64,000 bases of DNA from an uncultured Chloroflexia bacterium (GCA_963752975.1 CAVWAG010000004.1:87660-151659); one strand, 5' to 3'; shown: positions 24,219 to 46,853, numbered from the stretch's first letter. Made by a program: numbers and translations. Notes: a model not told the origin generated them from the letters alone.

Positions 24219-25598
24219 TTATTTTTCATGTCCCTTTTTCCTGTTTCTGCGTCCTATGACGCCGAGGAACAACGTGGGGGACTTTGCTTCTTTACCGGCC
24301 AATCCGGCTTCAGTGCAGGCCTTTTTAGCCTTTCGCAGGTAAAGCCAGTTCTGCCATACTCCCTTCGGCTCAAATCCGAAGTAGTTCTTCAACCAGAATG
24401 CACCACCGCTGTTCTTCAGCCTTTCACGGCGGCCCAATGTAACATGGTATCTTGACTTCAATTCCCGCGCTTCTTCATAAGTATTCACGCGCACCATCCT
24501 GCCATCAGCCCCCGGGACCACGTACCCGCTGGCTATCAGCATGTCGTATCGTTTTTTCGTCTCGTCGAAATCCGGCCCACACACGAGTGAACACTGGCCA
24601 CAGGTGAGCACGTAGGGGTCTTTCAGCCCTGTTACTCCCATGTGCTCATGGGCAGTGACCAGCAGCCTGCCGATCTCTTCCTCATTGCCAGGCAGGTTTT
24701 CATAATCAGGTATCAGGTCCTCAACGCTTTGCCTTGGGTAGAGAATGGAATTGCCGCGGCGTATAACATCGTATCGCGGCCCGCCATCCCCTGACCTTGG
24801 GCCTTCCCTCATCATCATCATCCTTATCGAGGTCCGATTATCAGGATCAGGCCGATGGTCCGAATATTCTCGTATCCAGTGCCGGCCCCAGTTGGTCCAT
24901 TTTTTATCGGACGAGATACCATGTAGACCGAAACAGGGCATGTTGCACAGGTCCAGGTTATCGCGCTTGCCGCGCGCGTGCAATTCGCCATTTATCAGCA
25001 GGTACTCTTCTTCATCATCACGAAACATCCGCAGTGTGCAGGACTTATCGCAGAGCTTGCAGGTACGGCAACGGTTATCCATGGTGTCACGGGTAGGCAA
25101 TATGGGATCGGATTTTAGCGGCGCATCGGTGATAACTGTGCCCAAATATACGGCAGCTCCATATTGCCTGGTAACTACGTTGCCGGATAGGCCAAATGTG
25201 CCCAGGCCCGCCACCACGGCGCCGAAGCGGTGAGAAAAACTTGGCTGCGGGGTAAACGGGTCAGGGGAGCGCCTGTAGGTGTTATTCGGGGGAACGGGCA
25301 AAGCCTTGTATCCCAATTCGACAATATAATCGGCAAGCTCCTTTGAAATGCGGTGCATGCGCTGGCACGATTTCAACTGTTCCAGGTTGTGAGGCCCATG
25401 GGATTTCTTGGATAGGAAATCGTAGATAGCAGGTACGTTCATCGGCAGTGCCATGGAGACGATCGCCCTGGCGCCCTTCAATGTATATGTGGGGTCGAGA
25501 GATGGCGGGCCGTCGAACCGGCCCTCTCCCGCTATACCAACCAACCCTATACCGGCTTTCCTGGCAAAATCCTTGATTTTCTCTTCATTACTCTGCAT
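24219..25598 (-). CDS. QueG/RdhA-superfamily Fe-S protein (epoxyqueuosine-reductase-like), long form
   Basis: 459 aa. N-terminal IKDFARKAGIGLVGIAG, core SHRFGAVVAGLGTFGLSGNVVTRQYGAAVYLGTVITD and CRTCKLCDKSC resemble B. subtilis QueG (recalled from memory). Paralogue of 43101-44516. Confidence 0.65.
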   Translation of the reverse strand: MQSNEEKIKDFARKAGIGLVGIAGEGRFDGPPSLDPTYTLKGARAIVSMALPMNVPAIYDFLSKKSHGPHNLEQLKSCQRMHRISKELADYIVELGYKALPVPPNNTYRRSPDPFTPQPSFSHRFGAVVAGLGTFGLSGNVVTRQYGAAVYLGTVITDAPLKSDPILPTRDTMDNRCRTCKLCDKSCTLRMFRDDEEEYLLINGELHARGKRDNLDLCNMPCFGLHGISSDKKWTNWGRHWIREYSDHRPDPDNRTSIRMMMMREGPRSGDGGPRYDVIRRGNSILYPRQSVEDLIPDYENLPGNEEEIGRLLVTAHEHMGVTGLKDPYVLTCGQCSLVCGPDFDETKKRYDMLIASGYVVPGADGRMVRVNTYEEARELKSRYHVTLGRRERLKNSGGAFWLKNYFGFEPKGVWQNWLYLRKAKKACTEAGLAGKEAKSPTLFLGVIGRRNRKKGHEK

Positions 25599-25626
25599 TA
25601 GTTAGTCTCCGCTGTAATCCAACCGA

Positions 25627-27303
25627 TCAGGTTCGAAAGCGACCCATGAATATCAGGAATGCCGGCCAGCTCCCTTCCAGGTTTATCTTCCCCTGCTGCA
25701 CCATGGCAGCAGTATCAGCTAATTTCAGCGCCATCATCTTGTACGTGAGCGAATCTGTTGTAACAATTGCCACAGGTGCCGGGGTGCCGGGCAGCGGCTG
25801 TCCTTCCGCAATCTCCGCTACGCCGTTGCGGACAGTGACAGTAAACTGCCTGCTCACGTCCGGGAATATAAAGAGCACGGATTCATATACGCCCCTGGCT
25901 TTGTCGGGGATAAGCCTCGGCTGCAAATTGGTAAATATCAGGTCAACGGGCAACCCCGCCACCAGGTCGGGATCGAGTTTCCCCGGAAAGTCCGGCGGTC
26001 GAGCTTTATCCAGTTCGAGGGCCGATTCCAGTAAATAAGCCCTGCCATTGGTATTAGAGGTATTATCAGCAATCTGCCGGTAGGCCGTGGCCAGCAGGCC
26101 ATCCAGCTTCGTAGCGGTGTCACCCGAGGCCAGGCCGCTGTCTTTCAATTTGGCCAGGAGATGTACCGCCCACTGAGGATCGCCATCCGCCAGGGCTTTG
26201 CCGGCCAGCCCGGCCAATTTTTCGGGCCCGCCCATCAGCTCCACCTCGCGTCTGGCCAACTCATCATGATTCAGCGGATATAGCTTGTCCGCCCTGCCGT
26301 CAAACCAGCCCTCGTTATTTGTGTATATCGCCCGCGCCGACCAGCTCACCTGGCCATACCCCTCCCAGAGGTAAGGCAATTGCGCAAGCTGGGGCGGCAG
26401 TTTGATATTTTCAGCTATCGTATCGATGTCCTGGCCTGCGTTGGCGCGCCTGATCACTTCGTCCCGTACCCACTGTATGGCATCCCGGTAGTTGGTCAGT
26501 ATCTCTTCGATCCGGGCTCTCCCGTTCACCGGGCTTGTATGCGAGGGGACGAGATGCTCCGGTTGCAGCCGCCGCATATCGTCCAGGCTGTTTATCCACC
26601 CGTCGGTCGGGCGCGGGCGGCTCCCGCGTATGGTGTACAGGTTGGGGAAAGCACTGTAGTAATCATCCGCACACAGAAGCGTATTGTCTGCGGGTATCCA
26701 GACGAAGAGAGTATCATCCGTCTCGCCCGGGGCGGTGTGAAGTTCTATTGTCAGGCCACCGATCTCCAGCGACTTCATGCCCGCGAAAGTGTCGGTGGGC
26801 ATAATCGTGCCGGTCTCGGCCAGTTCTTCAAGTGTGTAGGATTTCAGCACAGGCCCGATGGCAGAGCACGGAAGATCCTCGCGTGACAAATGGTATCCGA
26901 ATTGCCTGTAGCCGCGCGCCTTCTCCGCCTGCATGAAGGTGCCGTATTGCTTCACGAAATTGCCAACGAAGTTTTCCTCGGCCCATATGCGCGTACCGGG
27001 TTCCATCCATGCGCTCGTCCCGCCGACATGGTCAATATGGGTATGCGTATATATAATAGCCTTGACCGGTCCGGAAGGCGCGCTTTCGGAAAAGGCTTTC
27101 TTTATCGCTCGTGCGGCCGCCGGGCACTGGGACGTATCGACGATAACGTTACCTTCCTCGGTATGTATCAGCTCCGTATTGGCCAGGTCATAGCCGACGG
27201 CCACCCAAACATGCTCGGACACCTGCTCGACGCGCGGCGGCCCGATGTCATCCCGGCAATGCTGCGTTATGGTCTCAATTGCGCCCACATTCCTGACCCT
27301 CAC
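25627..27303 (-). CDS. MBL-fold alkyl/aryl sulfatase (SdsA1/BDS1 type) with dimerisation and SCP2-like C-terminal domains
   Basis: 558 aa with THTHIDHVGG (HxHxDH), PGETDD and PSH motifs, and a C-terminal SCP2-like segment. The ORF opens with GTG and has no RBS; see 27300-27398. Confidence 0.8.
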   Translation of the reverse strand: MRVRNVGAIETITQHCRDDIGPPRVEQVSEHVWVAVGYDLANTELIHTEEGNVIVDTSQCPAAARAIKKAFSESAPSGPVKAIIYTHTHIDHVGGTSAWMEPGTRIWAEENFVGNFVKQYGTFMQAEKARGYRQFGYHLSREDLPCSAIGPVLKSYTLEELAETGTIMPTDTFAGMKSLEIGGLTIELHTAPGETDDTLFVWIPADNTLLCADDYYSAFPNLYTIRGSRPRPTDGWINSLDDMRRLQPEHLVPSHTSPVNGRARIEEILTNYRDAIQWVRDEVIRRANAGQDIDTIAENIKLPPQLAQLPYLWEGYGQVSWSARAIYTNNEGWFDGRADKLYPLNHDELARREVELMGGPEKLAGLAGKALADGDPQWAVHLLAKLKDSGLASGDTATKLDGLLATAYRQIADNTSNTNGRAYLLESALELDKARPPDFPGKLDPDLVAGLPVDLIFTNLQPRLIPDKARGVYESVLFIFPDVSRQFTVTVRNGVAEIAEGQPLPGTPAPVAIVTTDSLTYKMMALKLADTAAMVQQGKINLEGSWPAFLIFMGRFRT

Positions 27304-27398
27304 CGTGCTCCGGAAGAGCAGCCGGCGCCCTGCAATAAAACCAGGGCCAGCAATAATACTGACAATATACCGCTGAAATTGTTATGCAATCTGTTCAT
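27300..27398 (-). CDS. 32-aa lipoprotein signal-peptide ORF, probably the displaced N-terminus of the sulfatase
   Basis: MNRLHNNFSGILSVLLLALVLLQGAGCSSGAR* ends exactly where the sulfatase ORF begins, in a frame offset by 1 nt. Not in the supplied track. Confidence 0.45.
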   Translation of the reverse strand: MNRLHNNFSGILSVLLLALVLLQGAGCSSGAR

Positions 27399-27442
27399 CT
27401 TTTCCTGACCTCAATTTGATCCTGACTCGATCTGCGAGGCTG

Positions 27443-28276
27443 CTATTTGCCTTTGTTCTTTTTATGTTCTTCAAACCTTTCCCGCAGGTATGGCCAGCCC
27501 GGGGTTATGCCTTCCGTCAGACTCATGGCCATCATGGTGTGCGGAGGTTGCCCGACATTCATATGGCCCCCGGTCAGGAAGAGGTTTTCATCGACCTTAA
27601 ATATCTTCTCCGCCGGCATGCCTATAGCGATCTCAGTTTCATGAGCAGCAGCCACAGAATGGTCACCGAATCCGGGGATCACGATCTGCGGAACACCTGT
27701 GATCCATGGAACAAACCCTCCCTTCTGGCATGACTCTCCAAATCCCGAGAAATCTGATGAGGGGAAATCTTTACCGTCGTATACCATGGCATGGATAAGG
27801 TGCATCACATTAAGGCTGTTGCCGTAGGCCGTGACTGTATCTGGTATTAATTTTGCGTCCTGCAGCGGGGCACACACAAAACCGATATATCCTTTCATTT
27901 TCTCCGGGTAATTTTTACCCCAGCGTTTAATATAGAGGTTCCAGACGCCGGTTTCCGCCTCCAGGTCCTTGTGCCAGCCCTGCAGTATCTGGCTATGAAT
28001 GATCTCATCCGGGGTGGCCTCTTCCCACATATGCCAGGCTGTGGCAGCGGTGCAGAAACAGTCCTTGCCCGTCATGGCGATCGAGAAACCGAACCTCCTG
28101 GCATACGTCAGCGCCTGGCAGAGGCTGGCCTGCTGTCCCATCGCGCTGGGCCTGATGCTCCCTTCAGGTATCTCCGCCTCGCTCTTGATATATTTGATAC
28201 CTATGGGATAGGTAGCCAGGTGCAATTTGTCGTATACGCTTTTGCCCGCCTTCCTGTATTCTTCCAGTGTTCTCAT
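27443..28276 (-). CDS. DUF169 (COG2043-like) family protein
   Basis: 277 aa. The pattern YPIGIKY...SLCQALTYARRFG...C.C resembles DUF169. Paralogue of 46012-46853. Confidence 0.6.
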   Translation of the reverse strand: MRTLEEYRKAGKSVYDKLHLATYPIGIKYIKSEAEIPEGSIRPSAMGQQASLCQALTYARRFGFSIAMTGKDCFCTAATAWHMWEEATPDEIIHSQILQGWHKDLEAETGVWNLYIKRWGKNYPEKMKGYIGFVCAPLQDAKLIPDTVTAYGNSLNVMHLIHAMVYDGKDFPSSDFSGFGESCQKGGFVPWITGVPQIVIPGFGDHSVAAAHETEIAIGMPAEKIFKVDENLFLTGGHMNVGQPPHTMMAMSLTEGITPGWPYLRERFEEHKKNKGK

Positions 28277-28287
28277 AGACTACCTCA

Positions 28288-28866
28288 CTAATCATTATTC
28301 TTGTTCAGTAACGCTTCTTGCAGCATACGCACGGCGGTATCCTCATACCGCGAAATGTCCAGGTTCCGCCACAATAGGCATAATTTGGCAATCCACTGGA
28401 CAAATCCGCCGGTCAACTCCGATGCTATTACCGGTTCGTAATCCTGCATGTCACCGTTAGCAACCCGCTCTCGGAAAAAACGCCGTAAAATTTTCTGTCC
28501 CCTGGGATTCTCAATGGCCGCACCGCCGGCAGCTAATCCCAGGCGCAAATCAAGCAGTTCCAGTAAATCCCGCTCCCGGGAAGCTACGGCTAACGCGGCA
28601 TGCACCGCTTCTTTTATGGCTATGCGCGCGTCAGGATTTTGCATGGCCCGAAGAAGCGCATCAGCCACCATCTCCTGGTAACGGTCGCATAGAGCGTCAA
28701 GCATGGCCTGCTTGGACTCAAAGTAAAGGTACACCGTCCCCTTGGCAACCCCGGCAAGCTGAGCGATCTCTGCTACATGCGCCTTCGCATAGCCATTCTG
28801 CTTGAACACTTCGCGCGCGGCTCGTAATATATCCTCACGCCGGTTGGGATCAGCGAACTTGGCCAT
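28288..28866 (-). CDS. TetR/AcrR family transcriptional regulator
   Basis: 192 aa with ILRAAREVFKQNGYAKAHVAEIAQLAGVAKGTVYLYFESKQAML. Confidence 0.9.
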   Translation of the reverse strand: MAKFADPNRREDILRAAREVFKQNGYAKAHVAEIAQLAGVAKGTVYLYFESKQAMLDALCDRYQEMVADALLRAMQNPDARIAIKEAVHAALAVASRERDLLELLDLRLGLAAGGAAIENPRGQKILRRFFRERVANGDMQDYEPVIASELTGGFVQWIAKLCLLWRNLDISRYEDTAVRMLQEALLNKNND

Positions 28867-28872
28867 GATACC

Positions 28873-29307
28873 TCACTTTACCCGCTTGATGCTGGCCTCG
28901 ACATCTATACCCTCGCGCAGCGAGTACATGGCCAGCGTATCGCGGCTGACGATCTCCAGGCACTCGTCTAAAATCGACTGGTCGGCGTCGCCGATATCCA
29001 CCTCTATCTCTACCTGTATCTCATTAATCCGCGTGCGCAAAACCGAGTCCTTCTCCTTATTTGAGGCGGAACGGCCGGTCAGTGACCGCACATCAGCGCC
29101 GCGTTTGATCAAATCCGATGCCAGCGTGGTAGCCACACAGCACAGGGCAGCCGCGTTTAATATGCGGTTGGCCCAGTGCTTGCGGCCCTCCGGCGAAAGA
29201 TCTTTGTTGCTCACCTGGAACACAGGTACACCATCCGGCGTCATGGTGAAGAGATGGCCATCGCTGCCATCCCTACGGTATTCGACGACACAATCTGTCA
29301 GTTCCAT
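28873..29307 (-). CDS. OsmC/Ohr-family-like protein
   Basis: 144 aa from the ATG at 29307 (AAAGGAGG RBS). Its size and the AAALCCVATTLAS segment resemble OsmC-like proteins. Weak call. Confidence 0.5.
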   Translation of the reverse strand: MELTDCVVEYRRDGSDGHLFTMTPDGVPVFQVSNKDLSPEGRKHWANRILNAAALCCVATTLASDLIKRGADVRSLTGRSASNKEKDSVLRTRINEIQVEIEVDIGDADQSILDECLEIVSRDTLAMYSLREGIDVEASIKRVK

Positions 29308-29365
29308 TGCTCCTCCTTTGGCAGCGGTGCGGCTTACTGGCCGCACCGCCCTTTATCTCAATTCT

Positions 29366-31381
29366 TCAGGCACATTCATGCTTGTCCCAGGGCTGACGTT
29401 CGCCGCGCTGCAGCGCCGTCTCCATCCTGGCCAGGCCTGCCCTCAGCTTGCCTATCTCGTCGGATTTGAAGTCGGGATTTTTAAATAGTTGGTAAAGTAC
29501 CGCGCCATCGACCGTTGAAGGTACAGGCAAATCCATCAGGTAGCAGACGGTCGGAACTATATCGATCAGGTTGCAGGTCCGCTGCAGCCGGTAGCCCTTC
29601 TTGATGCCCGGGCCGGTAAAGGTCAGCAGCGCCTTCAGATTGCCCACGCCCCATTCAGCCGCGGGCAGGATGTTGGCGTGTTGTCCGGAAAACCAGGGGT
29701 AAACCGCGTATACCACGTCGCCCACATGGTCGCCGTAAAGTCCCAGTATGCGTGCGTCCTGCTTGGTCAGCGCCAGTGACACCGGGCGCTTGCCCGTCTC
29801 CGGGTCCACATAGGTCAGCAGCGCATCAATTATCTGCTGCTGCACTGCCTTGTAATCCTTGGGGTCCACGATGCCCTCGGGGTCGCGTCCCTTGAGGTTT
29901 ACGTAGATATATATGGCACGCTGGGGAAAACACTTGGATTTATTAACGTCGGGCGCCTGGAAGGCTACCTTGAACTCCTCTATCAAACCCTGTGCTCTTC
30001 CCTTTATGTCTCCCACGTTGGCGAAATCGATCTGCTTCTCAGACAGCACTGTCAGCCCGGCCGGTCCCAGCATCTTGTACGGATCTATAGCGGGGCCATC
30101 CGGTACCGCGCCGTGGTCGGATACAGTGATGACCAGGGTATCCTTATCCAGCACCCCTAATATCTGTGCCAGCATCTTGTCCTGTGCCTGGTATATCCTC
30201 AGGTGCGCGTCCCAGGCCGCCTTAAGCTTGTCTTTGTCTTTGTTCAGGTCAGGGTCCATCTCGGTCAGTATCATGTGGTAGGCCCAGTCAGGTGCATGCG
30301 CGTGCATGAAGAACATGTCCCATTCATGCTTGGTCATCAGGGCACACGCGCAATCAGCCATGTATTGGGAGTAGAATTCGTTGATCTCCACGAAGGTGTT
30401 CAGATCATACCATTCCAGCGCGTATCCTATGATACCTCCGGAATTTCCGTTGATTCCCTCGGCAGAAACAAGCTCAGCCATGATTTCAGGCGGGTTGCTT
30501 ATTCCGGTCCTGGGGCCGATTGAGCTGATGTATAGCCTGAAGTCCTCGGCATCGTCGCCCAGCTCTATCAGCTTGCAGCGGAAGAAACCCTCCTCCTCCT
30601 TGCCATCATCCAACTTGAGTTTTACATTGATTACAGGGCTCCATTCCCCAACCGCCAGGGTGCAGAAGGCTTCATTGAAATCCCTGGCCGGCGACAGCAT
30701 CGCCCTGTCGTAGCCGTTATCACCCGACTGGCGTGCAAGTACGTACCAAGTGGTTGGAGCAATAGGAGTTTCCGCATCACGGAATACCATTTTGGCCTCG
30801 AGCTCAAGCGGTTCATTTTCTTTCTTTGGCAGGTTTTTCCAGCCCTTGGCCTCGGAAAACTTGCCCTTTATCCCCCGGGGGAAAAAGCCGGATGTGATAA
30901 GCATATCATTGCTTAACCTGGCGCGGTTAAACATAGCCGGCATACCACCGCGATGCTCGCCCAGCGCCAGTCCCCTGCCACCAACCACGATGCCGTTCTT
31001 CATTTTGGAAGGCCAAGAACCAGGGTAGTTGAGTACGATACATTTCTTGCCGGCCTTGTCTGCTGTATCCCACAGGTACTCCGCTTCGCAAAGCTGGCTG
31101 TCGAAGGCCTGGACACAATTGGTGTTGACCGGTGTTGTCCCCGGCATGTGATAGTGGAAATCGGTTATACCGTGCGTTCCCGGCCAGGCGCCGGTGGCGA
31201 TGGAAGCCCAGTTGGGCGGTGTCACGGTCGGGTAGGGAACAAGGCAGTTTTCCGCTATCACGCCGCCATCAATGAGCTTTTTAAATGTCGGCAGGTGGCC
31301 GTCCGCGATATGTTTCTCGATCAGGTGGGGTAATGCGCAATCCAGCCCGATTACCGCTACTTTCTTTGGTACATTTGCCAT
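29366..31381 (-). CDS. alkaline-phosphatase-superfamily protein (type I phosphodiesterase/NPP-like), paralogue 2
   Basis: 671 aa with N-terminal VAVIGLDCA, candidate Thr nucleophile motif PTVTPPNW, and VSDHGA. No signal peptide. AAGGAGG RBS. Confidence 0.8.
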   Translation of the reverse strand: MANVPKKVAVIGLDCALPHLIEKHIADGHLPTFKKLIDGGVIAENCLVPYPTVTPPNWASIATGAWPGTHGITDFHYHMPGTTPVNTNCVQAFDSQLCEAEYLWDTADKAGKKCIVLNYPGSWPSKMKNGIVVGGRGLALGEHRGGMPAMFNRARLSNDMLITSGFFPRGIKGKFSEAKGWKNLPKKENEPLELEAKMVFRDAETPIAPTTWYVLARQSGDNGYDRAMLSPARDFNEAFCTLAVGEWSPVINVKLKLDDGKEEEGFFRCKLIELGDDAEDFRLYISSIGPRTGISNPPEIMAELVSAEGINGNSGGIIGYALEWYDLNTFVEINEFYSQYMADCACALMTKHEWDMFFMHAHAPDWAYHMILTEMDPDLNKDKDKLKAAWDAHLRIYQAQDKMLAQILGVLDKDTLVITVSDHGAVPDGPAIDPYKMLGPAGLTVLSEKQIDFANVGDIKGRAQGLIEEFKVAFQAPDVNKSKCFPQRAIYIYVNLKGRDPEGIVDPKDYKAVQQQIIDALLTYVDPETGKRPVSLALTKQDARILGLYGDHVGDVVYAVYPWFSGQHANILPAAEWGVGNLKALLTFTGPGIKKGYRLQRTCNLIDIVPTVCYLMDLPVPSTVDGAVLYQLFKNPDFKSDEIGKLRAGLARMETALQRGERQPWDKHECA

Positions 31382-31494
31382 ATTGTTCCTCCTTAATTGT
31401 GTTTTCTATGCATATCTGTAAAACTGATTGCTTTCTCAGATTTTGTTCAATGTGTTGATTTCAACGATTGGCATGTGCCATTCCTCTTATGACC

Positions 31495-33516
31495 CTACGG
31501 GGCGTCATCTTTTTTATCCCAGGGCTGGCGCTGGGTGCGTTGCAGCGCTAACTCCATCCTGGCTAAACCCTCTTTCAGCTTGGCAATTTCATCCGGTTTG
31601 AAATTGGGGGTTTTGAAAGTCTGGTAGAGCACGGCGCCCTCGGTTGTCGAAGGCAGCGGCAGGTCCATCAGGTAGCAGATGGTCGGCACTATGTCGATCA
31701 GGTTGCAGGTCCGCTCCAGCCTGTAGCCCTTCTTAATGCCAGGCCCGGTAAAAGTCAACAGCCCTTTGAGAGAACCGATGCCCCACTCCGCTGTAGGCAA
31801 TATGTTGCCATGCTGGCCGGCCACCCAGGGATAGACGGCGTAGATCACGTCACCCACCCAGTCACCGTACAGGCCCAGTATGCGGGCATCCTGCTTGGAT
31901 AAAGCAAGGGACACCGGGCGTTTACCAGTCTTGGGATCAACGTAAGTGAGCAATGCATCGATGATTTGCTGCTGCACTTTTTGGTAATCGGCAGCTTCCA
32001 CGATGCCTTCAGGATCGCGTCCCTTGAGGTTGATGTAAACATACAGTTCCCTCTGGGGGAAACACTTGGATTTACTGACATTGGGCTGCTGGGCAATCGC
32101 CCTGAATGTCTGTATCTCACCCTGGAAGCGGGTCGTGCTTGTTACCGGTATGGATAAAGTATTAACCTGCTTCTCTTCAAGTACCGTCAAGCCCGCCGCG
32201 ATGAGCGGTTTAAAAGGATCGAAGATGACGCCATCGGCAACGGCGCCGTGGTCAGAAACGAGTATGAATAGCGTCTCCTTATCGCAGGCCTGCATTATCT
32301 GCGCCAGCATCCGGTCCTGGGCCTCGTATATCTTCAAGTGTGCATCCCAGGCCGCTTGCCTCTTGATCTCATCCTTGGTCAGGTCAGGGTCCATCTCTGT
32401 CAATATCAGGTGGTATGCCCAATCCGGCGAATGGGCGTGCATGAAAAAAAGGTCCCATTCATTTTTACTCAGCAGCATACTGGCGGCATTGGCCAGCCAC
32501 TTCGTGTAGAAATCGTTGATCTCCACGAAAGTATCCAATTCGTACCACTCGAGTACAAACCCGAGTATGCCTCCCGCGTTTAAAGTATAGCCATCTCTGG
32601 TCTGTAGCTGGCCAGCAATCTCAGGGGGGCTGCTCCAGCCCGATTTGAAGCCGATCTGGGAAATATAGAAACGCAGATCCTCAGCCTCGTCGGATAGTTC
32701 CAGCAGCTTGCAGCGGAAGTCTGCCTCCTGCTCTGTGCCATCATTAAGCTTCAACTTCGTAGTTATGTTAGGGCTCCACTCACCCACTGACAACGTGCAG
32801 AAGGCATCCTTAAAGTCCTTTGTCGGGGATAAGGTGACGCGGTCATAACCGCCGCCGCCTGACTGGCGCGCCAGCAAATACCAGACAGGCTGTATCAAAT
32901 CCGGGTGAGCGCCTACCATGATCAGGCCAGCCTCTATTTCCATCGGGTCTTTTTCCTTGGCAGGCAGGTTTTTCCAACCTGTGGCGGGTTTGAAAGCACC
33001 TTTCACAGCCCTCGGGTAGATACCGGTGGTAATCAGCTGATCAAGGCAACCTTTAACGCTGGAACTCAAACCCATGATCCCATCACGGTTTTCGCCTACC
33101 GAAAGTCCACTGCCGCCAACAGTGATCCCGTGCTTTAGCTTGGCCGGCCATGAACCGGGGTAGTTCAGTACAATACACTTCTTGCCCGCCCGGTCAGCCG
33201 CATCCCAGAGGTATTCAGCCTTGCAACGCTCACTGCTGAACGCCTGGACGATGTTGGCATTGGTGGGGGTAGTCCCGTGAAGGTGTACATGGAAGTCGGT
33301 TATGCCATGTGTACCCGGCCAGGCGCCGGTGGCGATGGAGGCCCAGTTGGGCGGTGTAACGGTCGGGTAGGGGACAAGGCAATTGTCGGCGATGACACCG
33401 CCTTCAATAAGTTTCTTGAAAGTGGGAAGGTGCCCGTCCTTGATATGTTTCTCAATCAGGTGGGGCTCTGCGCAGTCCAGCCCGATTATTGCCACTTTCT
33501 TCGGTACATTTGCCAT
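31495..33516 (-). CDS. alkaline-phosphatase-superfamily protein (type I phosphodiesterase/NPP-like), paralogue 3
   Basis: 673 aa, in tandem with paralogue 2 and carrying the same motifs (IGLDCA, PTVTPPNW, VSDHGA). Confidence 0.8.
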   Translation of the reverse strand: MANVPKKVAIIGLDCAEPHLIEKHIKDGHLPTFKKLIEGGVIADNCLVPYPTVTPPNWASIATGAWPGTHGITDFHVHLHGTTPTNANIVQAFSSERCKAEYLWDAADRAGKKCIVLNYPGSWPAKLKHGITVGGSGLSVGENRDGIMGLSSSVKGCLDQLITTGIYPRAVKGAFKPATGWKNLPAKEKDPMEIEAGLIMVGAHPDLIQPVWYLLARQSGGGGYDRVTLSPTKDFKDAFCTLSVGEWSPNITTKLKLNDGTEQEADFRCKLLELSDEAEDLRFYISQIGFKSGWSSPPEIAGQLQTRDGYTLNAGGILGFVLEWYELDTFVEINDFYTKWLANAASMLLSKNEWDLFFMHAHSPDWAYHLILTEMDPDLTKDEIKRQAAWDAHLKIYEAQDRMLAQIMQACDKETLFILVSDHGAVADGVIFDPFKPLIAAGLTVLEEKQVNTLSIPVTSTTRFQGEIQTFRAIAQQPNVSKSKCFPQRELYVYINLKGRDPEGIVEAADYQKVQQQIIDALLTYVDPKTGKRPVSLALSKQDARILGLYGDWVGDVIYAVYPWVAGQHGNILPTAEWGIGSLKGLLTFTGPGIKKGYRLERTCNLIDIVPTICYLMDLPLPSTTEGAVLYQTFKTPNFKPDEIAKLKEGLARMELALQRTQRQPWDKKDDAP

Positions 33517-34919: not shown

Positions 34920-35927
34920 TTACGCCTTATTCTTGACCGGTATTCCGGTCGAGCAGGGCACCCCTACCGAGCACAGCCCACAGCCGTAGATGAAGATGTG
35001 ATAATGCTTGTTACAATAAGCCAGCGATTTGGATACCCGCTGATAACAGGTTTCCTTGTTATGTCCATTCTCATCGATAGCCTGAACTGGGCATTTTGCC
35101 GCGCATTTCAGGCACTTCACACCATTATGGTGCAGGCAATTGGCGTGTATGTTTTCCGGCCGCAACCGGTCAGGCTGCAGCCGCAGGTTAACAATGAAGC
35201 TGCCGCAGCGGTGTGCGGCGCCCTTTTCGGTGATGAGGAAGTCGTGCATGCCAAATGTCCCCAGGCCTGCCGCGTAGGCTATATGCCGGTGTGACCAGGG
35301 CGATGCCCAGCCTACCCTAGGGTAACGCTGCTTTCGCATCAGGGGCGTGACATCAGGAGCCACCGCCAGCACACCTCTATCCATCAAATATGACACTATC
35401 TCCCTGACCATGGCCTGGCTGAATATCTCTCCCAGCAAGCGGGTATGCGCCCAGCGCTCGGATGGCCACTCGGTCATGGCCGCGTTCTCCTGCCGGGTCC
35501 TTTCCGTTATCGGCATTACGAAAGATATCACACTCAGGTCAGCGGCCTTCGGTGCAGGGACTCCGTTGTTGGCAGCCTGCCATGCCATCCACTCCTCCGG
35601 TGTCAGGTGGTGAGGCCCGATGATTTTCTTGTATTCCAGGAAAATAGGGTCATCGCCCCGAACAAAGCTGACCAGCGGCTTATCGAATATCTTCTCACCG
35701 GCAAATGGATACTCCATCGCATTCATAGGGTGATTTTCCACTTTCTGCTCGATAGTTTCCCGGAACCATTTTTCGTCAAGAACCGGGGCGCCGGGGGCAG
35801 GGACATAGTCAGCATTGAATTTGGGCTGCCGTGGATGCCCTTTGCCTTTCATCTCGCCAACTGCGTTCTTAATGCCCCTGATATCTGTGATAAAAGATAG
35901 TCTCCGGTAACTATTGCGCACCGTCAT
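34920..35927 (-). CDS. QueG/RdhA-like 4Fe-4S protein, short form
   Basis: 335 aa with SHRHIAYAAGLGTFGMHDFLITEKGAAHRCGSFIV, then CLKCAAKCP and GCGLCSVGVPC cluster motifs. No Tat signal. Confidence 0.6.
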   Translation of the reverse strand: MTVRNSYRRLSFITDIRGIKNAVGEMKGKGHPRQPKFNADYVPAPGAPVLDEKWFRETIEQKVENHPMNAMEYPFAGEKIFDKPLVSFVRGDDPIFLEYKKIIGPHHLTPEEWMAWQAANNGVPAPKAADLSVISFVMPITERTRQENAAMTEWPSERWAHTRLLGEIFSQAMVREIVSYLMDRGVLAVAPDVTPLMRKQRYPRVGWASPWSHRHIAYAAGLGTFGMHDFLITEKGAAHRCGSFIVNLRLQPDRLRPENIHANCLHHNGVKCLKCAAKCPVQAIDENGHNKETCYQRVSKSLAYCNKHYHIFIYGCGLCSVGVPCSTGIPVKNKA

Positions 35928-39312: not shown

Positions 39313-40512
39313 ATGGCGAAGAAAGCGTCGGAGCTAAGCGCAATAGACAGGGAAATTTGCACGAATCTCCTGAAATGGATGTGCACATCGTGGTATAGCC
39401 AGCCCATCACCGACAATTCCATCATGATGATTGCCTACCGCTACACCCCTGAGGAAGCAGACTATCTGACGGGCTTCCCTCTCTCGCCAAAAACAGTCGA
39501 GGAGCTTGCCGGTTTCAAGAATACGGGAATTGACGAACTCACGAAAAAAATTGACGAGATGACCAGGAAAGGTCTGCTGTACAGTTTCACGAAAAATGAC
39601 AAGCGTTATTACCTCTTGAACGAAATCTATACGAGCCTGCGCACGTGGGGATGGCCAGGGCCGGCCGCCACTCCTGAAAACAAAGCTTTCGCCACATTGA
39701 TGGAAAGCTGGGGACCGGAGTTCATGGCACCCTGGGAATACGTCAAAGAGAAGGGACTGCGCGTGATACCCATCCAGCAAACCGTGGAAGATGACAGGCG
39801 GATACTGCCCTATGAAGATGTCAAGAAGATGCTCGATTCTTACACATATTTCTGCGTCACGCATTGTGGCTGCCGCGAGCGAAAAAACCTGGCCGAGCAC
39901 ACTCCCGATTGCAAGTACCCGTCGAGTGTCTGCCTGCACTTTGACCGCCTGGCCCATTACATCGTAGAAAACGGCATGGGGCGGGAGATCACCAGGCAGG
40001 AGGCGGCCGATATACTGCGCCAGTGTGCCGACCTTGGCCTGGTGCACGGCATTAGTAACCAGCAGATGGGCACAGACACGATCTGTAATTGCTGCAGTTG
40101 CTGCTGCATGTGGTTTGATGGGTTACGCCAGCTCAAGAATGGCGGGACCATTAACCCTTCGAACTACCGTATCCATACTGAAGATCTTACATGTACCGGC
40201 TGCGGGCTATGCGTGAAACGCTGCCCCATGGACGCACTGAAACTAAAAGATGCTCCCGATGCAAGGGGTAGAAAAACCATGGTGGCCGGAGAAGGCGGGA
40301 AGGAGAAGTCCCTCATCAATAAAACCGGGAAGCTGGCATCTGCTAACACCAACCTGTGCATCGGCTGCGGCGTTTGCGCCTACAAGTGCCCTTCAAAGTC
40401 GTTGACCCTCGTGCGCAACGAGACCGAGCATCATCCGCCCCAAACCGATCGCGACTGGGTAATCCAGTATGTGACCGACACCGCCGGCTTCCGTCACAGC
40501 GACAATACGTGA
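39313..40512 (+). CDS. 4Fe-4S dicluster domain protein with an additional Cys-rich motif
   Basis: 399 aa with two CxxCxxCxxxCP motifs (CTGCGLCVKRCP, CIGCGVCAYKCP) plus HCGCRERK and CNCCSCCC. Confidence 0.7.
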   Translation: MAKKASELSAIDREICTNLLKWMCTSWYSQPITDNSIMMIAYRYTPEEADYLTGFPLSPKTVEELAGFKNTGIDELTKKIDEMTRKGLLYSFTKNDKRYYLLNEIYTSLRTWGWPGPAATPENKAFATLMESWGPEFMAPWEYVKEKGLRVIPIQQTVEDDRRILPYEDVKKMLDSYTYFCVTHCGCRERKNLAEHTPDCKYPSSVCLHFDRLAHYIVENGMGREITRQEAADILRQCADLGLVHGISNQQMGTDTICNCCSCCCMWFDGLRQLKNGGTINPSNYRIHTEDLTCTGCGLCVKRCPMDALKLKDAPDARGRKTMVAGEGGKEKSLINKTGKLASANTNLCIGCGVCAYKCPSKSLTLVRNETEHHPPQTDRDWVIQYVTDTAGFRHSDNT

Positions 40513-40610
40513 TGCATACCTCGGAATAGGACTGCTTGTTAAAAATATGCCTGACGGAGATGGTTTGGGAAACATCCGGTAATAAAACAAAGATACAGAT
40601 AAAGGAGTAA

Positions 40611-40760: not shown

Positions 40761-40811
40761 GAGTAGCCAAACTTAATCGAAAGCAACGGTAACTCAATAG
40801 ACAGGAGGTGC

Positions 40812-41282
40812 ATGATGAAATTCGTGCCTCTTTTACCTGAAACACAAAATGATTACAAGGGGCATAAAGCAATAATAGTTGTTGCTGCATTGCTTGCTCT
40901 TGTGGCAACTGTCCGTTCTTTGATTCACATATTCTTGCCTGATGGTGGTTCTAATGCGATAGCCGGTCTGGCAATTCCGGGGGATGCCAACAGCGCAGTC
41001 ATCTTCACTTTTGCCTGGACCGGGCTATATCAATTGCTGTTTGCAATCATACTGTGGATCGTTTTAATTCGCTACAGGGCTTTGATTCCTTTAATGATCC
41101 TCTTGCTGTTTTTTGAAGAACTCGGTTTATTCCTCATACCCATATTCAAACCCATTGCATCAAGCTTGTTAACACGAACTCCGCCAGAGGTAATAGGGAA
41201 TAAGGTGTTGCTGCCACTGACACTGATACTATTCTTCGTATCCCTAATTCCTGCACCTGAGCGTAAGAGCAAAGCAGCCTGA
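40812..41282 (+). CDS. hypothetical membrane protein (about 4 TM)
   Basis: 156 aa with hydrophobic segments and an AGGAGGTG RBS. No family recognised. Confidence 0.55.
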   Translation: MMKFVPLLPETQNDYKGHKAIIVVAALLALVATVRSLIHIFLPDGGSNAIAGLAIPGDANSAVIFTFAWTGLYQLLFAIILWIVLIRYRALIPLMILLLFFEELGLFLIPIFKPIASSLLTRTPPEVIGNKVLLPLTLILFFVSLIPAPERKSKAA

Positions 41283-41372
41283 TAGAGGTCCATCAAATGC
41301 TGTGGGCAGACCGATACCATAGGTGCGGATGAATTCGAAGGTAACTTTTATCCCACTCTCCCCGCATTATTG

Positions 41373-42269: not shown

Positions 42270-42390
42270 GTTACCTCCTATCCTGTGAGTTAATTTTTCG
42301 CCGGCCCTGCGGGATGAACTGGACCATCCTGTCCATACCACAGATTTTTCACTGCTTTATACTTGCATTTGACTAAATTTTATAAATAGT

Positions 42391-42423
42391 CTAATCTATC
42401 AAATGTTCAATATCTAACATTTG
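42391..42423. promoter_or_regulatory. candidate operator: perfect inverted repeat CAAATGTT-N8-AACATTTG overlapping the conserved 20-nt motif
   Basis: IR at 42400-42423, with motif 42391-42410 matching 39218-39237 in reverse complement. It lies in the dehalogenase/TetR divergent region. Possible TTGACT (42369-42374)-17 nt-TAATCT (42392-42397) promoter. Confidence 0.5.
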
Positions 42424-42441
42424 TTCGATGATAGTAACATT

Positions 42442-43071
42442 ATGAAAACCGGATTGTCAACTGTAAGAACGTTTAGCCCGAATAACGGCCTGGTTGAGGA
42501 GAGGCGCCGACAGATCATCCAGGCGGCTTTCCGTCTTATTGCCGCCAGGGGCATTCAGAAAACCAGCATCAGGGAAATCGCCGCTGCCAGTGAAATGACC
42601 ATCGGCAACCTCTATCACTACATCGGAACACGCGAGGATATTATTTTCCTGGCTATTAACTACGGCCTGGACCAGGTCCGCAAATTGATCAAGGAAATAA
42701 ATGATCTGTGTGAAACCCTTGAGCCGAGGGAAGCGCTCAAGGCTGCTATAGACCGCTACATGAGGTATCACCACGCCAATTGGGAAGGCACCGTTTTTCT
42801 TTATAAAGAGATGGGCAGTTTTTCACCATCCTTGCGCTTGCCTGTGATCGAAGTGAATTCACACATGCACGATGTGTTCATCCGCATCCTGAAGAAGGGT
42901 TGCAAGACCGGTGTGTTTGCAGTAACCGATATTGAGCTGGTGGCCAGCACGATTGTTTCCATGGGTGATATGTGGGCGTTAAAACGCTGGCAATTTAAAA
43001 AGAACTACACGCTGGACAGGTATATAGACAGCTTTACTCAAATGATTCTGGCGTTAATTAGCTGTACTTAA
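42442..43071 (+). CDS. TetR/AcrR family transcriptional regulator
   Basis: HTH signature IIQAAFRLIAARGIQKTSIREIAAASEMTIGNLYHYIGTREDII. The ATG at 42442 is preferred over the TTG at 42421, but the start is uncertain. Confidence 0.85.
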   Translation: MKTGLSTVRTFSPNNGLVEERRRQIIQAAFRLIAARGIQKTSIREIAAASEMTIGNLYHYIGTREDIIFLAINYGLDQVRKLIKEINDLCETLEPREALKAAIDRYMRYHHANWEGTVFLYKEMGSFSPSLRLPVIEVNSHMHDVFIRILKKGCKTGVFAVTDIELVASTIVSMGDMWALKRWQFKKNYTLDRYIDSFTQMILALISCT

Positions 43072-43100
43072 AATAATATATTATCCAGGAGGTCTCTTTA

Positions 43101-44516
43101 ATGCCGAGTTTAGAGGAAAACATCAAGGATTTCGCCAAAAAAGCCGGCGCGGCGCTGGTGGGTGTTGCCGGGCCCGACCGTATGGATGGTCCAGCTTCGC
43201 TCGACCCTGGCTTTATCATGCGTGGCGCTAAATCCATTGTATCCATAGCGCTGCCACTGGATGTCAATGCTATCTACGAATTTTTCGGCAAGATATCCCC
43301 GGTGCCGCATAATATCGACCAGGCCATTAAAAACCAGCGTGCGCACCGTATCGGCACGGAGATCGCCGAATATATTAGCAGCCTGGGATATAAGGCAAAG
43401 GTAGTTCCCCCCAATAATACCTATCGCCGCAGCATAGACCCATTTATGGTAAGGCCCACTTTTTCTCACCGCTTTGGAGGTCTTGTGGCCGGCCTGGGCA
43501 GTTTCGGGCTATCGGGCAACCTGGTTACCAAAGAGTACGGCGCCTGCATCGTACTGGATACGGTTGTTACCAACGCCAAACTCAAATCCGACCCGGTACA
43601 GCCGGCGCGCTTCGTCATGGACAACCGCTGTAAGACCTGCAAGCTATGCGATAAATCATGTACCATGGGCATGTTCAGGGATGATGATGAAGAATACCTG
43701 CTCATCAACGGCGAGTTACATGCCCGGGGCAAGCGCGATAACCTTGATTTCTGCAACGCCCCCTGTTTTGGGTTGCACGCCCTATCCAGGGATAAGAAAT
43801 GGACCAACTGGGGTCAGCACTGGATAAAGGAATGGATGGATGAACAACCTGACCCCAGCAAGAGGGAGGAAATACGGTCAACTTATATGCGGGTGGGCGG
43901 CAGAACCGGCGACAGCACGCTGCGCTTCGATGTCATCAGGCACGTTGCCAGGGACCTCTATCCCAGGGGCAAAGTCGAGGATTTTCTGCCCGATTACCAG
44001 CACCTGCCCAGGGATGAAGAAGGACGCCGGCAGATTATGCTTACTCTCTATGCAAACATGGGGTTCAAAGGGCTGGAAAGAGACCCCAACCTCATAACCT
44101 GCTCGCAATGCATGATGGTCTGCGGTTGGGACTTCGATGAAACCAAGAAACGCTACGACATGCTCACCAGCAGCGGATACGTGGTGCCTGACCCTGACTG
44201 GAAAATGATCCATGTGGATACCTACGAGGAGGCCCTCGCGCTCAAGGAGAAATACAAGCGCCGTGTACACCCGGCGGAGATGATAAAAGACGCACAGGCA
44301 TCAGGCAAGCTGTGGTTCAAGAACTACTTCGGCTATGAGCCCATCGGTGAGTTCAAAGACCTCATCTACCGCATTAAGGTCAAAAATGCCTGTGCCAAGG
44401 CCGGACTGAAGGGCAAGGAGGCGCTGGCGCCCCTATTGATCAATCCTTCGTATCTGTCAGCAATGATACTGCCGCCCAAGAAAAAGAGAAAAAAGAATCC
44501 CGTCACCAGCAGCTAA
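43101..44516 (+). CDS. QueG/RdhA-superfamily Fe-S protein, long form (paralogue of 24219-25598)
   Basis: 471 aa, collinear and highly similar by eye to the 459-aa copy. CKTCKLCDKSC motif and a lysine-rich tail. AGGAGG RBS. Confidence 0.65.
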   Translation: MPSLEENIKDFAKKAGAALVGVAGPDRMDGPASLDPGFIMRGAKSIVSIALPLDVNAIYEFFGKISPVPHNIDQAIKNQRAHRIGTEIAEYISSLGYKAKVVPPNNTYRRSIDPFMVRPTFSHRFGGLVAGLGSFGLSGNLVTKEYGACIVLDTVVTNAKLKSDPVQPARFVMDNRCKTCKLCDKSCTMGMFRDDDEEYLLINGELHARGKRDNLDFCNAPCFGLHALSRDKKWTNWGQHWIKEWMDEQPDPSKREEIRSTYMRVGGRTGDSTLRFDVIRHVARDLYPRGKVEDFLPDYQHLPRDEEGRRQIMLTLYANMGFKGLERDPNLITCSQCMMVCGWDFDETKKRYDMLTSSGYVVPDPDWKMIHVDTYEEALALKEKYKRRVHPAEMIKDAQASGKLWFKNYFGYEPIGEFKDLIYRIKVKNACAKAGLKGKEALAPLLINPSYLSAMILPPKKKRKKNPVTSS

Positions 44517-44572
44517 AATACCGATACGCTAAGACGCGGGGAAAGGTCTTGAGATCTGGTCCCGTTAACTAC

Positions 44573-44581
44573 TGGTATAAT
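44573..44581 (+). promoter_or_regulatory. candidate extended -10 promoter element TGgTATAAT
   Basis: TG at 44573-44574 and TATAAT at 44576-44581, about 55 nt upstream of the 44638 start. No good -35. Confidence 0.35.
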
Positions 44582-44637
44582 TGGCTATCATTACAGGTAA
44601 TTTAATAATTCATTTGTAGCAAGAGGAGGATAAAGTT

Positions 44638-45030
44638 ATGGCAAAGTTGACTGACGCAATGAAGGCAGTGATAACTGGCCAGCAGGCTTGGGTGGCGACC
44701 AGCGGCGCGGACGGCCGGCCCAACCTGGCCCTGAAGGGTACTGCCAAGATACTGGATGATGAGCACATAGCCTATTTTGAACTGTTTGGCAACCGCACCT
44801 GGGCCAATATTCAGCGTAACCCCTGGGTAGCTATCGGGGTAGCCGACTCCACCAAATTCAAGGGCTACCGTTTTGAGGGTAAGGCGGAGATAGTAACCTC
44901 AGGGCCCCTCTATGATGAAGCCGTAAAGTTTGGCGAACTCCTGAAGCTGCCGGCGCCACCCAAGGCTGCCATCAAGGTTAAAATCGAAGAGATCTACAAT
45001 ATCGGCAAGGGCGGGATGAAAGTAGACTGA
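44638..45030 (+). CDS. pyridoxamine 5'-phosphate oxidase-like FMN-binding (split-barrel) protein
   Basis: 130 aa. The pattern AWVATSGADGRPNLALKGT...RNPWVAI is typical of the PNPOx-like family. Confidence 0.7.
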   Translation: MAKLTDAMKAVITGQQAWVATSGADGRPNLALKGTAKILDDEHIAYFELFGNRTWANIQRNPWVAIGVADSTKFKGYRFEGKAEIVTSGPLYDEAVKFGELLKLPAPPKAAIKVKIEEIYNIGKGGMKVD

Positions 45031-45175
45031 ACTCACATTTACCGCCGATTTTACGGCTTAAGCGCATTAAAACGGGGCAGGGATAACTGATCCGGCAAGG
45101 TAGTAAAACAACTTTTTACTCTGACACAATCAATTTCGCAGGCCTTTTCGCAAAGAACAAGGAGGGGTAAAACGC

Positions 45176-45970
45176 ATGATAAATGAAAAAGCCGTAGAAA
45201 ATATTGAAAAATACGGCCCCTGCCATGAGACAGGGGAGGAGAAACGTAAAATCCTGGACGGGATCGGTTTCCCGGTAGGCCGGAAAGCCGAATACGTGAT
45301 CATTGCCGGCTGTTTTCAGCCCGTTGGCATGCCGCATGTACTGAAAGCACTTAAAAATGTGCTCGACCACTATAAGGTCAGCTACACGCTGCTCGAGAAA
45401 GAATATTGCTGCGGCTGGATGCCCATCGGCCAGCCGGCAGTCATGTCTAAAAACGAGGAGGATATCGCCCGTTTCAAGGAGATATCCCGCAAATTGATAG
45501 TCAAGAACTTTGAGCAGGCCAAAAAGCTGGGGGCGAAATCCATAGTCCTTTTCTGTGGCGCCTGTGAACCCAATTACGCCAATGCCATGGACCTCACGGA
45601 CCTCGAGGTAATTTCCTGCAGCGAATTGATCGACCGCTATTTCACGGGCGGGAATCTCGATGCCGAGATAGACTATTATGCCGGATGCTACCGCTTCCGC
45701 CGCAAGGTGACCGACAAGCCGGTGGATGTCCAGTCAGCCGTGCGCGTGCTCAAGAAGATTGAAGGCCTAAGGGTAAATGACCTCGATAACAAGTTCTGCT
45801 GCTATATACCGCCGCACTTGGAACAACTGCTGGGTACAGTCAAGACAGGCACAGTGGTAAATATCTGTACGGGCTGCTACTTCAACCTGAAAAACGGGAT
45901 GGCCAAAGACGGGTCAAAACAGGCCAAGATGCTGCCGGAGGTTGTCTGGGAATCCCTGGGTAAAACATAG
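45176..45970 (+). CDS. cysteine-rich CCG-domain protein (HdrB/GlpC-like)
   Basis: 264 aa with two CCG-type motifs (EYCCGW, KFCCY) and additional CxxC motifs. Confidence 0.6.
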   Translation: MINEKAVENIEKYGPCHETGEEKRKILDGIGFPVGRKAEYVIIAGCFQPVGMPHVLKALKNVLDHYKVSYTLLEKEYCCGWMPIGQPAVMSKNEEDIARFKEISRKLIVKNFEQAKKLGAKSIVLFCGACEPNYANAMDLTDLEVISCSELIDRYFTGGNLDAEIDYYAGCYRFRRKVTDKPVDVQSAVRVLKKIEGLRVNDLDNKFCCYIPPHLEQLLGTVKTGTVVNICTGCYFNLKNGMAKDGSKQAKMLPEVVWESLGKT

Positions 45971-46011
45971 CCCGGGCACTGATCAAATCGAATGTCTGAT
46001 AAGGTGGATTT

Positions 46012-46853
46012 ATGCCTGAATTATCGGATTACTGCAAAGCAGGAGTAGATTTATATGAGAAGCTGCATCTGGCGACCTACCCTGTGGCCATCAAATATAT
46101 ACGGGACGAGTCGGAAATACCGCCCAAAGCCGTAAGGCCTTCACAGGCTAAGCAGCAATGGAGTTTATGCCAGGCATTCACCTATTCGCGCAGGTGGGGA
46201 TGGACCGTTGCCATGACCGCTGACGATAACTTCTGTACCCCTGCCACGGCCTCGCACAGGTGGGTTGAGATATCTGCCGACGACCTGTTGCAGAGCCAGC
46301 TCTTCCAGGCCTGGCATAAGGATGTTGAAGCGGAAAAGAAGCGGCAGAAGCACGGCCTTGACCAGGTCGGCGAGGGCAACCTGCCAAAGCTGAGTCAATA
46401 CTGCGGCTTCATCAGTTCTCCCCTGGCACATGCCCCGCTAATCCCGGACAGCGTCCTGGTTTTGGCAACGGGGAAAATATCAACCATGTAATCCAGGCTA
46501 TCACTTATGAAGGTGAAAACTACCCGACGTCAACCTTCGAGGGTTTCGGGGAAACATGTATAAAAGGCGGCCTCCTGCCCCATATAACCGGGATACCTCA
46601 GATCGTTATACCCGGCATGGGAGACCGTACCTTTTCCGGCGTTTACGACTACGAGATCGCTATCGGCCTGCCTGCCAGCCTGCTCTTCGTCACGGTTCAG
46701 AATCTATTCAAGTCAGGGGGCAGGCTCAATTTGGGCAACCCGGTCAGGACGCTGCTGCCCACAGGCATCACCACAAATATCACTCCCGGCTTTAAATACA
46801 TGCGTCAGAAGATCGACGAGAGCGAAAAGAGAAAATCAGGGAAAAAAGGCTGA
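46012..46853 (+). pseudogene. DUF169 family protein, frameshifted at a T4 run (46460-46463)
   Basis: The 159-aa ORF plus a downstream frame (…ENINHVIQAITYEGENYPTSTFEGFGETCIKGG…) are collinear with the intact 277-aa paralogue. Adding one T restores the frame. Confidence 0.75.

Follow-up and report, generated by a model that had tools for sequence, protein, structure and literature searches.

The closest described relatives of the proteins considered here are QueG, the epoxyqueuosine reductase of tRNA queuosine maturation, and the reductive dehalogenases (RdhA, RDH), which belong to a superfamily whose corrinoid-binding nitroreductase-like core is followed by a ferredoxin-like domain. In QueG, two low-potential [4Fe-4S] clusters feed a base-off cobalamin (PMC5175355). 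Solved RdhA structures include those of the catabolic, cytoplasmic NpRdhA (4ras, 6zy1) and the respiratory PceA (4uqu, 8q4h). We analyzed a 64,000-nucleotide stretch of DNA from an uncultured Chloroflexia bacterium (GCA_963752975.1 CAVWAG010000004.1:87660-151659; hereafter the window) that carries two copies of a gene for a cytoplasmic Fe-S protein of this superfamily, here named FES, each accompanied by a TetR-type regulator gene and a gene of the DUF169 family (domain of unknown function 169; Pfam PF02596, COG2043). On our best reading, each locus is a paralogous copy of one cytoplasmic redox module, controlled by TetR and set in ester-hydrolase catabolic clusters, with component roles that are predicted below. 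We put a rough probability of 0.45 on FES being a corrinoid-type reductase of the cytoplasm, with a metal-binding DUF169 protein as its partner and Fe-S/flavin proteins as its electron carriers.

Locus A, on the minus strand, has a core that begins with TetR_A (28288-28866; Pfam TetR_N, E = 9e-17) and continues with DUF169_A (27443-28276; 277 aa, intact), a metallo-beta-lactamase (MBL)-fold alkyl sulfatase (25627-27303; Alkyl_sulf_dimr, Lactamase_B and Alkyl_sulf_C domains) and FES_A (24219-25598; 459 aa). Locus B, on the plus strand, comprises TetR_B (42421-43071), FES_B (43101-44516; 471 aa), a PNPOx-like small flavoprotein (44638-45030; PNPOx_N, E = 1e-19), a CCG-domain (HdrB/GlpC-like) protein (45176-45970; PF02754, E = 3e-10) and DUF169_B (46012-46853, read across a -1 frameshift). 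Because intergenic gaps are only 11-145 nt in both loci, each looks like an operon. FES_A and FES_B are 60% identical over 447 aligned residues (E = 0), and DUF169_A and DUF169_B are 48% identical over 275 (E = 3e-103). Both pairs are therefore paralogous far beyond chance, as the original prediction had held, although its estimate of two-thirds identity was too high. Its open reading frames (ORFs) for TetR_A, DUF169_A, the alkyl sulfatase, FES_A, FES_B, the PNPOx-like protein and the CCG protein stand at the coordinates given above, whereas DUF169_B proved not to be a single ORF; a Pfam search bore out its labels DUF169, TetR_N, alkyl sulfatase, PNPOx_N and CCG.

The pairing of FES with DUF169 extends well beyond these two loci. 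Taking one genome per species, we assembled 75 FES loci, all from metagenome-assembled genomes (MAGs) and none from an isolate, called ORFs, and built our own hidden Markov models (HMMs) for a scan of flanks of up to 10 kb per side (1.0 Mb in total). DUF169 is present in 25 of the 75 loci, which corresponds to 25 DUF169 genes per 1.0 Mb of flank; if this density reflected chance, a 3-Mb genome would need about 75 copies. A first pass with laxer thresholds had placed DUF169 at 28 loci, including 17 of the 19 in which FES shares at least 53% identity with the query. Loci with the pair are distributed over Dehalococcoidia, Syntrophaceae, Desulfosudaceae, Desulfomonilia, Thermodesulfobacteriota, Anoxymicrobiaceae (Actinomycetota) and unclassified MAGs. 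Either gene may come first, and what lies between FES and DUF169 varies by lineage: nothing, an alkyl sulfatase, PNPOx plus CCG, or a gene for Fer399, a ferredoxin-type protein described below.

The same association is evident in the opposite direction. A search of metagenomes with a DUF169 alignment yielded 80 loci, and an FES-type gene lies within 3 kb in 15 of the 23 that have at least 3 kb on both flanks. The gap between the two genes is below 300 nt at 16 loci, and the nearest FES gene is on the same strand as DUF169 in every case (33/33). One 20-kb locus (L076) holds three DUF169 genes and three short FES genes, along with two Fer399 genes, two sulfatases, an alkyl sulfatase and a flavodoxin. 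The linkage is real and frequent, and it is not universal. The original prediction had proposed a genome-context comparison of DUF169 with QueG/RdhA-like genes, and this comparison gives strong enrichment both ways; its main proposal, of a functional unit made up of FES and DUF169, receives support from the forward (25/75) and reverse (15/23) counts alike.

FES is a separate soluble family of the QueG/RdhA superfamily, neither QueG nor a respiratory RdhA. The family has no Pfam model. FES_A contains no Pfam domain at E <= 0.01, FES_B matches only Fer4_16 (18 bits against a cut-off of 30, over 20 residues), and DUF1730 (PF08331), which is expected of QueG, was not detected by the Pfam search in either protein. 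Scores against the QueG equivalog TIGR00276 (30.0 bits for FES_A, 23.7 for FES_B) compare with a cut-off of 200, and those against the RDH model TIGR02486 (40.7 and 33.3 bits) with a cut-off of 160.35. Sequence matches to both models, to PceA and to QueG span the core and the first Fe-S motif; in a sequence search of the PDB, only residues ~119-201 of FES align with PceA and QueG. Within this region, the FES core GLGxFGLSGN..T..YG aligns with the QueG/PceA segment just ahead of the first cluster motif.

The predicted fold is more informative about ancestry. An AlphaFold2 (AF2) model of FES_B, built from 49 homologues and having a predicted local distance difference test score (pLDDT) of 91.2, gave 46 Foldseek matches to the PDB at E <= 0.001, every one of them QueG or RdhA (E = 2e-8 to 4e-4). 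The best are QueG structures (B. subtilis 5d08, 5d0a and 5t8y; S. thermophilus 5d6s; E = 2e-8), and the next match outside these two groups is a non-significant nitroreductase (E = 1.1). In the model, a superfamily-type core is followed by a ferredoxin-like domain, and on the basis of this fold FES would be expected to bind a corrinoid. The structural match, with a query-normalized TM-score (TMq) of 0.32-0.37, takes in the N-terminal ~250 residues, about half of the protein; the other ~230 appear from the model to have no counterpart in solved QueG or RdhA structures. What had been called QueG-like and cobalamin/Fe-S-reductase-like thus holds at the level of fold and superfamily, where the AF2 model matches only QueG and RdhA, but not at the level of family, since FES falls below both cut-offs and has no significant Pfam domain.

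Nine cysteines are invariant among 49 FES sequences (C177-x2-C180-x2-C183-x3-C187, C218/C222 and C334-x2-C337-x3-C341), in the superfamily pattern, in which eight Cys make up two [4Fe-4S] sites (CX2CX2CX3C, then C...CX2CX3C). With QueG, FES has in common the core segment before the first CX2CX2CX3C motif and a soluble, cytoplasmic character. Unlike in QueG, the second motif is of the truncated RdhA type (CX2CX3C, aligning with CSNCVAVC of PceA) and comes after an insertion of ~140 aa, nothing matching the HEAT-like tRNA-binding part was found, and the genes are multi-copy and situated in catabolic operons. The corrinoid-core fold and the Fe-S arrangement, including the truncated motif, match NpRdhA and PceA; the RDH scores are far below the cut-off. 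Like NpRdhA, FES has a catabolic context and neither a twin-arginine translocation (TAT) signal nor RdhB. Among 49 family members, none has a TAT motif of the RRx[FGAVMLIT][LITMVFA] type within its first 45 residues, and no transmembrane (TM) segment is predicted. No RdhB-like ORF lies beside FES_A or FES_B, whose neighbours at 28-121 nt are the alkyl sulfatase, a phosphodiesterase, TetR and PNPOx; the small ORFs nearby all overlap bigger genes. FES has no fused reductase domain, so that its electrons would come from separate Fe-S/flavin proteins. On a tentative alignment, an S-D-R motif of B. subtilis QueG corresponds to S-H-R in FES. We did not equate H123/R124 of FES with Asp134/Arg141 of QueG because the offset between PDB-chain and native numbering was not fixed.

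A profile search of 1.84 billion representative sequences found 1916 FES relatives at E <= 1e-3. Only about five clusters at 50% identity are full-length, or "long", and many relatives are "short" (320-400 aa). Some others (P0236, P0239, P0250, P0272 and similar) reach 750-800 aa and are apparent tandem FES/QueG-like duplications. The window itself encodes a third, distant relative (34920-35927, minus strand; 335 aa; TIGR00276, E = 1e-6; TIGR02486, E = 1e-4), which is 27% identical to FES_A across the core and shares the S-H-R..AGLGTFG core. Proteins like it (~340 aa, of the short class) recur in the same loci.

Both DUF169 proteins of the window are clear members of their family, with DUF169_A scoring 123 bits against a gathering cut-off of 27, and both keep the residues that are invariant in near and far members alike (R42, P43, C53, Q54, R60, D72, C75, C183, G204 and D205). 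The family is old and found in bacteria and archaea. An AF2 model of DUF169_A, of high confidence (pLDDT 92.6), had no fold match in the PDB by Foldseek (best E = 0.6), a sequence search of the PDB returned noise only (E > 0.7), an NCBIfam search returned no family, and a comparison of the DUF169 and FES profiles with hhalign gave no homology. Literature searches on DUF169/COG2043/PF02596 and on the QueG/RdhA superfamily produced nothing on DUF169 function or on its linkage to FES.

Members of the DUF169 family that are linked to FES form a distinct clade, at least 41% identical internally and separated by a gap from the remaining family (~28-32%). They differ from the rest by an insertion at about residues 90-108, a C-terminal extension and the loss of a fourth cysteine, the far members having vPCxGDR where the FES-linked clade has IPGxGDR. 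Because cysteines are conserved across near and far members, a metal or Fe-S site can be proposed, and the alignments suggest a four-Cys site in the family at large and a three-Cys site in the FES-linked clade. FES was absent from all five distant DUF169 contexts that we examined, which were varied; judged against these, FES linkage is confined to the FES-linked clade. In two distant loci, DUF169 genes with ~26% identity to DUF169_A and the fourth cysteine retained are flanked by C_GCAxxG_C_C putative redox proteins (L160, 6001-7430; L162, 5152-7337). Another distant DUF169 gene (L161) lies beside B12-binding and URO-D genes, and the figure legend of a preprint places DUF169 among genes flanking Nitrospina-assigned HgcA homologues. 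We considered whether DUF169 is linked to corrinoid proteins in general and abandoned the idea, as four other distant contexts have no corrinoid gene.

The reading of DUF169_B across a frameshift requires comment. Its first frame meets a stop at 46491 after 159 aa, and the remainder (46470-46853) is in another frame; the two halves score 71.2 and 37.2 bits against PF02596 and span profile positions 2-131 and 133-204, respectively. Two 98%-identical MAG loci (L004 and L013) carry an intact gene, and alignment with these locates the difference at 46460-46463, where the window has TTTT and they have TTTTT. Two more window genes, for a ~670-aa phosphodiesterase (22138-24175) and a major facilitator superfamily (MFS) transporter (3814-5090), are also split by frameshifts. 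With three broken genes in 64 kb, and with split FES and DUF169 genes also seen in related long-read MAGs, assembly indels are the likeliest cause, rather than gene decay.

A third recurrent partner, missed in the original prediction, is Fer399 (39313-40512, plus strand), in which a 290-aa Cys-rich N-terminal region without a Pfam domain, carrying the motif CNCCSCCC, precedes a 2x[4Fe-4S] ferredoxin domain. Only Fer4-type families match it, at residues 293-362; its N-terminal 288 aa, like a 156-aa ORF at 40812-41282, have no Pfam match even at E <= 1. Members of the Fer399 family occur in 20-22 of the 75 FES loci, about as often as DUF169, often adjoin FES or DUF169, and are found together with DUF169 in 10 FES loci. 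We know of no described set of rdh accessory genes that includes DUF169 or Fer399, and literature searches found nothing on either in such a role. The PNPOx and CCG genes, put forward originally as electron-transfer parts, are clade-specific additions that occur in only 5-6 loci, all close relatives of locus B. Small flavoproteins repeatedly adjoin DUF169: locus B has the PNPOx-like protein, L076 a flavodoxin and L164 Flavin_Reduct.

These observations can be assembled into a tentative mechanism for a module whose hosts are uncultured anaerobes of the Dehalococcoidia, Desulfobacterota and Actinomycetota. FES, with its predicted corrinoid-type core followed by two [4Fe-4S] sites, would most likely use two electrons for a reductive elimination on a small organic substrate; candidates for what is removed are a halide or some other good leaving group, or else the oxygen of an epoxide. 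DUF169 would be a metal- or Fe-S-binding dedicated partner of FES, acting in the same or an adjacent step. Electrons may be supplied by Fe-S/flavin proteins encoded nearby, with Fer399 serving generally and the PNPOx-like and CCG proteins in addition in locus B. The substrate is suggested to derive from esterified (sulfated or phosphorylated) organics by the surrounding genes, which encode the alkyl sulfatase, phosphodiesterase/sulfatase-superfamily enzymes, phosphotriesterase, alpha/beta hydrolases, MFS transporters, CoA ligases and a short-chain dehydrogenase/reductase (SDR).

Several findings weigh against this mechanism. About two thirds of the FES loci lack DUF169 in the fetched flanks, several DUF169 clade members lie on long contigs without FES within 8-10 kb, and among six long-contig look-ups of more distant clade members, FES was present in one only. 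There is no FES-DUF169 fusion among the matches listed, those of 750-800 aa being tandem FES-like proteins. Moreover, the counts are not independent, as many loci come from related MAGs or shared sampling sites. The low scores of FES against the QueG and RDH models, and a structural match that covers only about half of it, point the same way.

In the main alternative, DUF169 would be a separate enzyme belonging to the same catabolic pathway, coupled to FES only metabolically, through consecutive steps, without a complex or mutual dependence. We regard this as possible but rather unlikely. In its favor are members of the DUF169 clade without FES (L163, L164, L165 and the P0176 contig), of which L164 directly follows a Flavin_Reduct gene, the transporters and unrelated enzymes that adjoin more distant DUF169 genes, and the FES loci without DUF169, which are the majority. 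Catalytic Fe-S enzymes typically have a three-Cys site with one open position, a description that the predicted DUF169 site would fit. However, the pairing of DUF169 with FES stays while the pathway genes change (alkyl sulfatase, PNPOx plus CCG, Fer399, NMO, SDR, acyl-CoA dehydrogenases), and it covers both long and short FES subfamilies. The short gaps, often 4-130 nt, and the one-to-one copy numbers in expanded loci also speak against a purely metabolic connection.

A stronger form of the partnership may also be considered, in which the FES-linked DUF169 proteins are obligate Fe-S partners, as electron-delivering, reactivating or co-catalytic subunits, of unrecognized cytoplasmic corrinoid reductases. 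Together with Fer399 they would then constitute a three-protein system for reductive removal of leaving groups from sulfated, phosphorylated or halogenated organics in anaerobes. We consider a system of this kind unlikely as a whole.

Returning to the corrinoid-type reductase with a DUF169 partner, its first component could be questioned instead. FES might have a flavin-binding core, or be a pure Fe-S electron carrier, so that the module would be a flavin/Fe-S redox system, in line with the nitroreductase-like ancestry of the fold. The very low HMM scores to QueG and RdhA would then be understandable, as would the invariant FES histidine that tentatively aligns with the Asp of the B. subtilis QueG S-D-R motif, the position of nitroreductase as the next, non-significant structural match, and the result of an Rfam search of the window, which found no cobalamin riboswitch or any other match. 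Yet all 46 significant structural matches are corrinoid enzymes, the GLGxFGLSGN..T..YG core aligns with QueG and PceA, and the second Cys motif has the truncation typical of RdhA. A corrinoid-free FES is thus improbable.

Nor does the linkage itself seem to be functionally meaningless, as it would be if it were inherited synteny in a narrow lineage or chance co-location in catabolic islands. Many of the loci do stem from Dehalococcoidia MAGs that are related to each other, and from the same lakes. Distances among FES proteins and among their neighboring DUF169 proteins co-vary (Mantel r = 0.45 for 40 non-identical neighbor pairs, with 0 of 2000 permutations as high), which counts in favor of a functional link, although co-inheritance alone would produce it too. 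However, the pairing recurs in Chloroflexota, several Desulfobacterota families, Actinomycetota and unclassified MAGs, with gene orders and intervening genes that vary among lineages, invariably on one strand, and at a density that chance could match only with some 75 DUF169 copies per 3-Mb genome, which makes such an explanation very improbable. Finally, that FES is simply a sequence-divergent QueG acting in tRNA queuosine maturation, or a respiratory RdhA, is scarcely credible: some homologues are labelled "epoxyqueuosine reductase QueG" by JGI and the closest solved folds are QueG and RdhA, but scores of 24-41 bits face cut-offs of 200 (QueG) and 160 (RDH), DUF1730 was not detected, the two FES copies of the window and its third, distant relative all lie in catabolic operons, a TAT signal, a TM segment and an RdhB-like ORF are all absent, and ~230 extra residues are unmatched in solved structures.

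The module lies in catabolic clusters for esterified organics. Three unrelated types of sulfatase-like hydrolase recur at FES loci: the MBL alkyl sulfatase, in the same position at 8 loci, a PF00884 sulfatase (7 loci) and PF01663 enzymes. Other recurrent neighbors are CoA ligases, SDRs, alpha/beta hydrolases, acyl-CoA dehydrogenases and MFS transporters. Within the window there are, in addition, a phosphotriesterase, three or four phosphodiesterases and other hydrolases. A hydrolase-rich island (12044-13045, 13263-14129 and 19769-33516) contains the phosphotriesterase, three or four PF01663 phosphodiesterases, the alkyl sulfatase, a further MBL-fold protein and two MFS transporters; close by lies a fragment of a Mutator-family transposase. 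Chlorosulfolipids, chlorinated organophosphate esters and alkyl sulfates would each fit the hydrolase context as substrates; these are pure speculation, and we do not claim them.

The two regulators are not specific paralogues of each other and belong to different subfamilies. Both have a TetR_N domain that scores above the Pfam cut-off (61 bits in TetR_A, 39.5 bits in TetR_B), which TetR_B combines with TetR_C_24 (50.7 bits), and the two align only in the helix-turn-helix (27% over 48 aa, E = 2e-4). TetR genes are found at 25 FES loci, again from different subfamilies, and TetR_A begins 6 nt after an OsmC-like gene, within a long co-directional gene array. The idea of a TetR dedicated to the module is therefore not supported in the form originally given. 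TetR_A orthologues do precede DUF169 in L016, L018, L019 and L028, and no repeat was found upstream of TetR_A. In one FES subclade (L048, L053, L055, L058 and L060), an AraC regulator with a PocR sensor lies divergently upstream of FES, replacing TetR.

The longest ORF for TetR_B starts with TTG at 42421, and the ATG at 42442 that had been taken as the start is not conserved in orthologues. Upstream is a sigma-70-like sequence, TTGACT (42369-42374)-N17-TAATCT (42392-42397), and just downstream of this a palindrome, CAAATGTT-N8-AACATTTG (42400-42423, assigned to neither strand), which overlaps the TTG start. Promoter and palindrome are conserved in 8 orthologous TetR_B upstream regions, in all of which the core is invariant. 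The palindrome is a plausible candidate operator through which TetR_B would be autoregulated.

Two further gene sets are found elsewhere in the window. Directly after a PAS-GGDEF gene (47098-49203), the interval 49330-53555 encodes two HGD-D components and a BcrAD/BadFG-type ATPase (51910-52785), with a second ATPase (52782-53555) assigned by our own clustering only; the set resembles a 2-hydroxyacyl-CoA dehydratase or is benzoyl-CoA-reductase-like. The interval 55242-63115 encodes an ArsP permease, an SBF (ACR3-like) transporter, DsbD_2 and a TauE sulfite-exporter-like protein. In D. alaskensis G20, a DUF169 gene is reported to lie next to TauE (PMC4001038); in the window the two are not adjacent.

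The recurring pairing with FES across several phyla provides a first consistent functional context for DUF169, and the conserved FES-DUF169-Fer399 neighborhood gives rise to a specific hypothesis open to testing by co-expression. The pairing also bears on how cytoplasmic RdhA/QueG-type enzymes without a fused reductase obtain their electrons or their partners, and on the use of ester-rich organic matter by the abundant Dehalococcoidia and Desulfobacterota of sediments and lakes. Should DUF169 prove to be an obligate partner, an old and widespread DUF would gain its first function, and RdhA/QueG-type enzymes a new accessory set. If FES indeed removes a halide or another leaving group, both the known chemistry and the known accessory repertoire of B12/Fe-S reductases would be wider.

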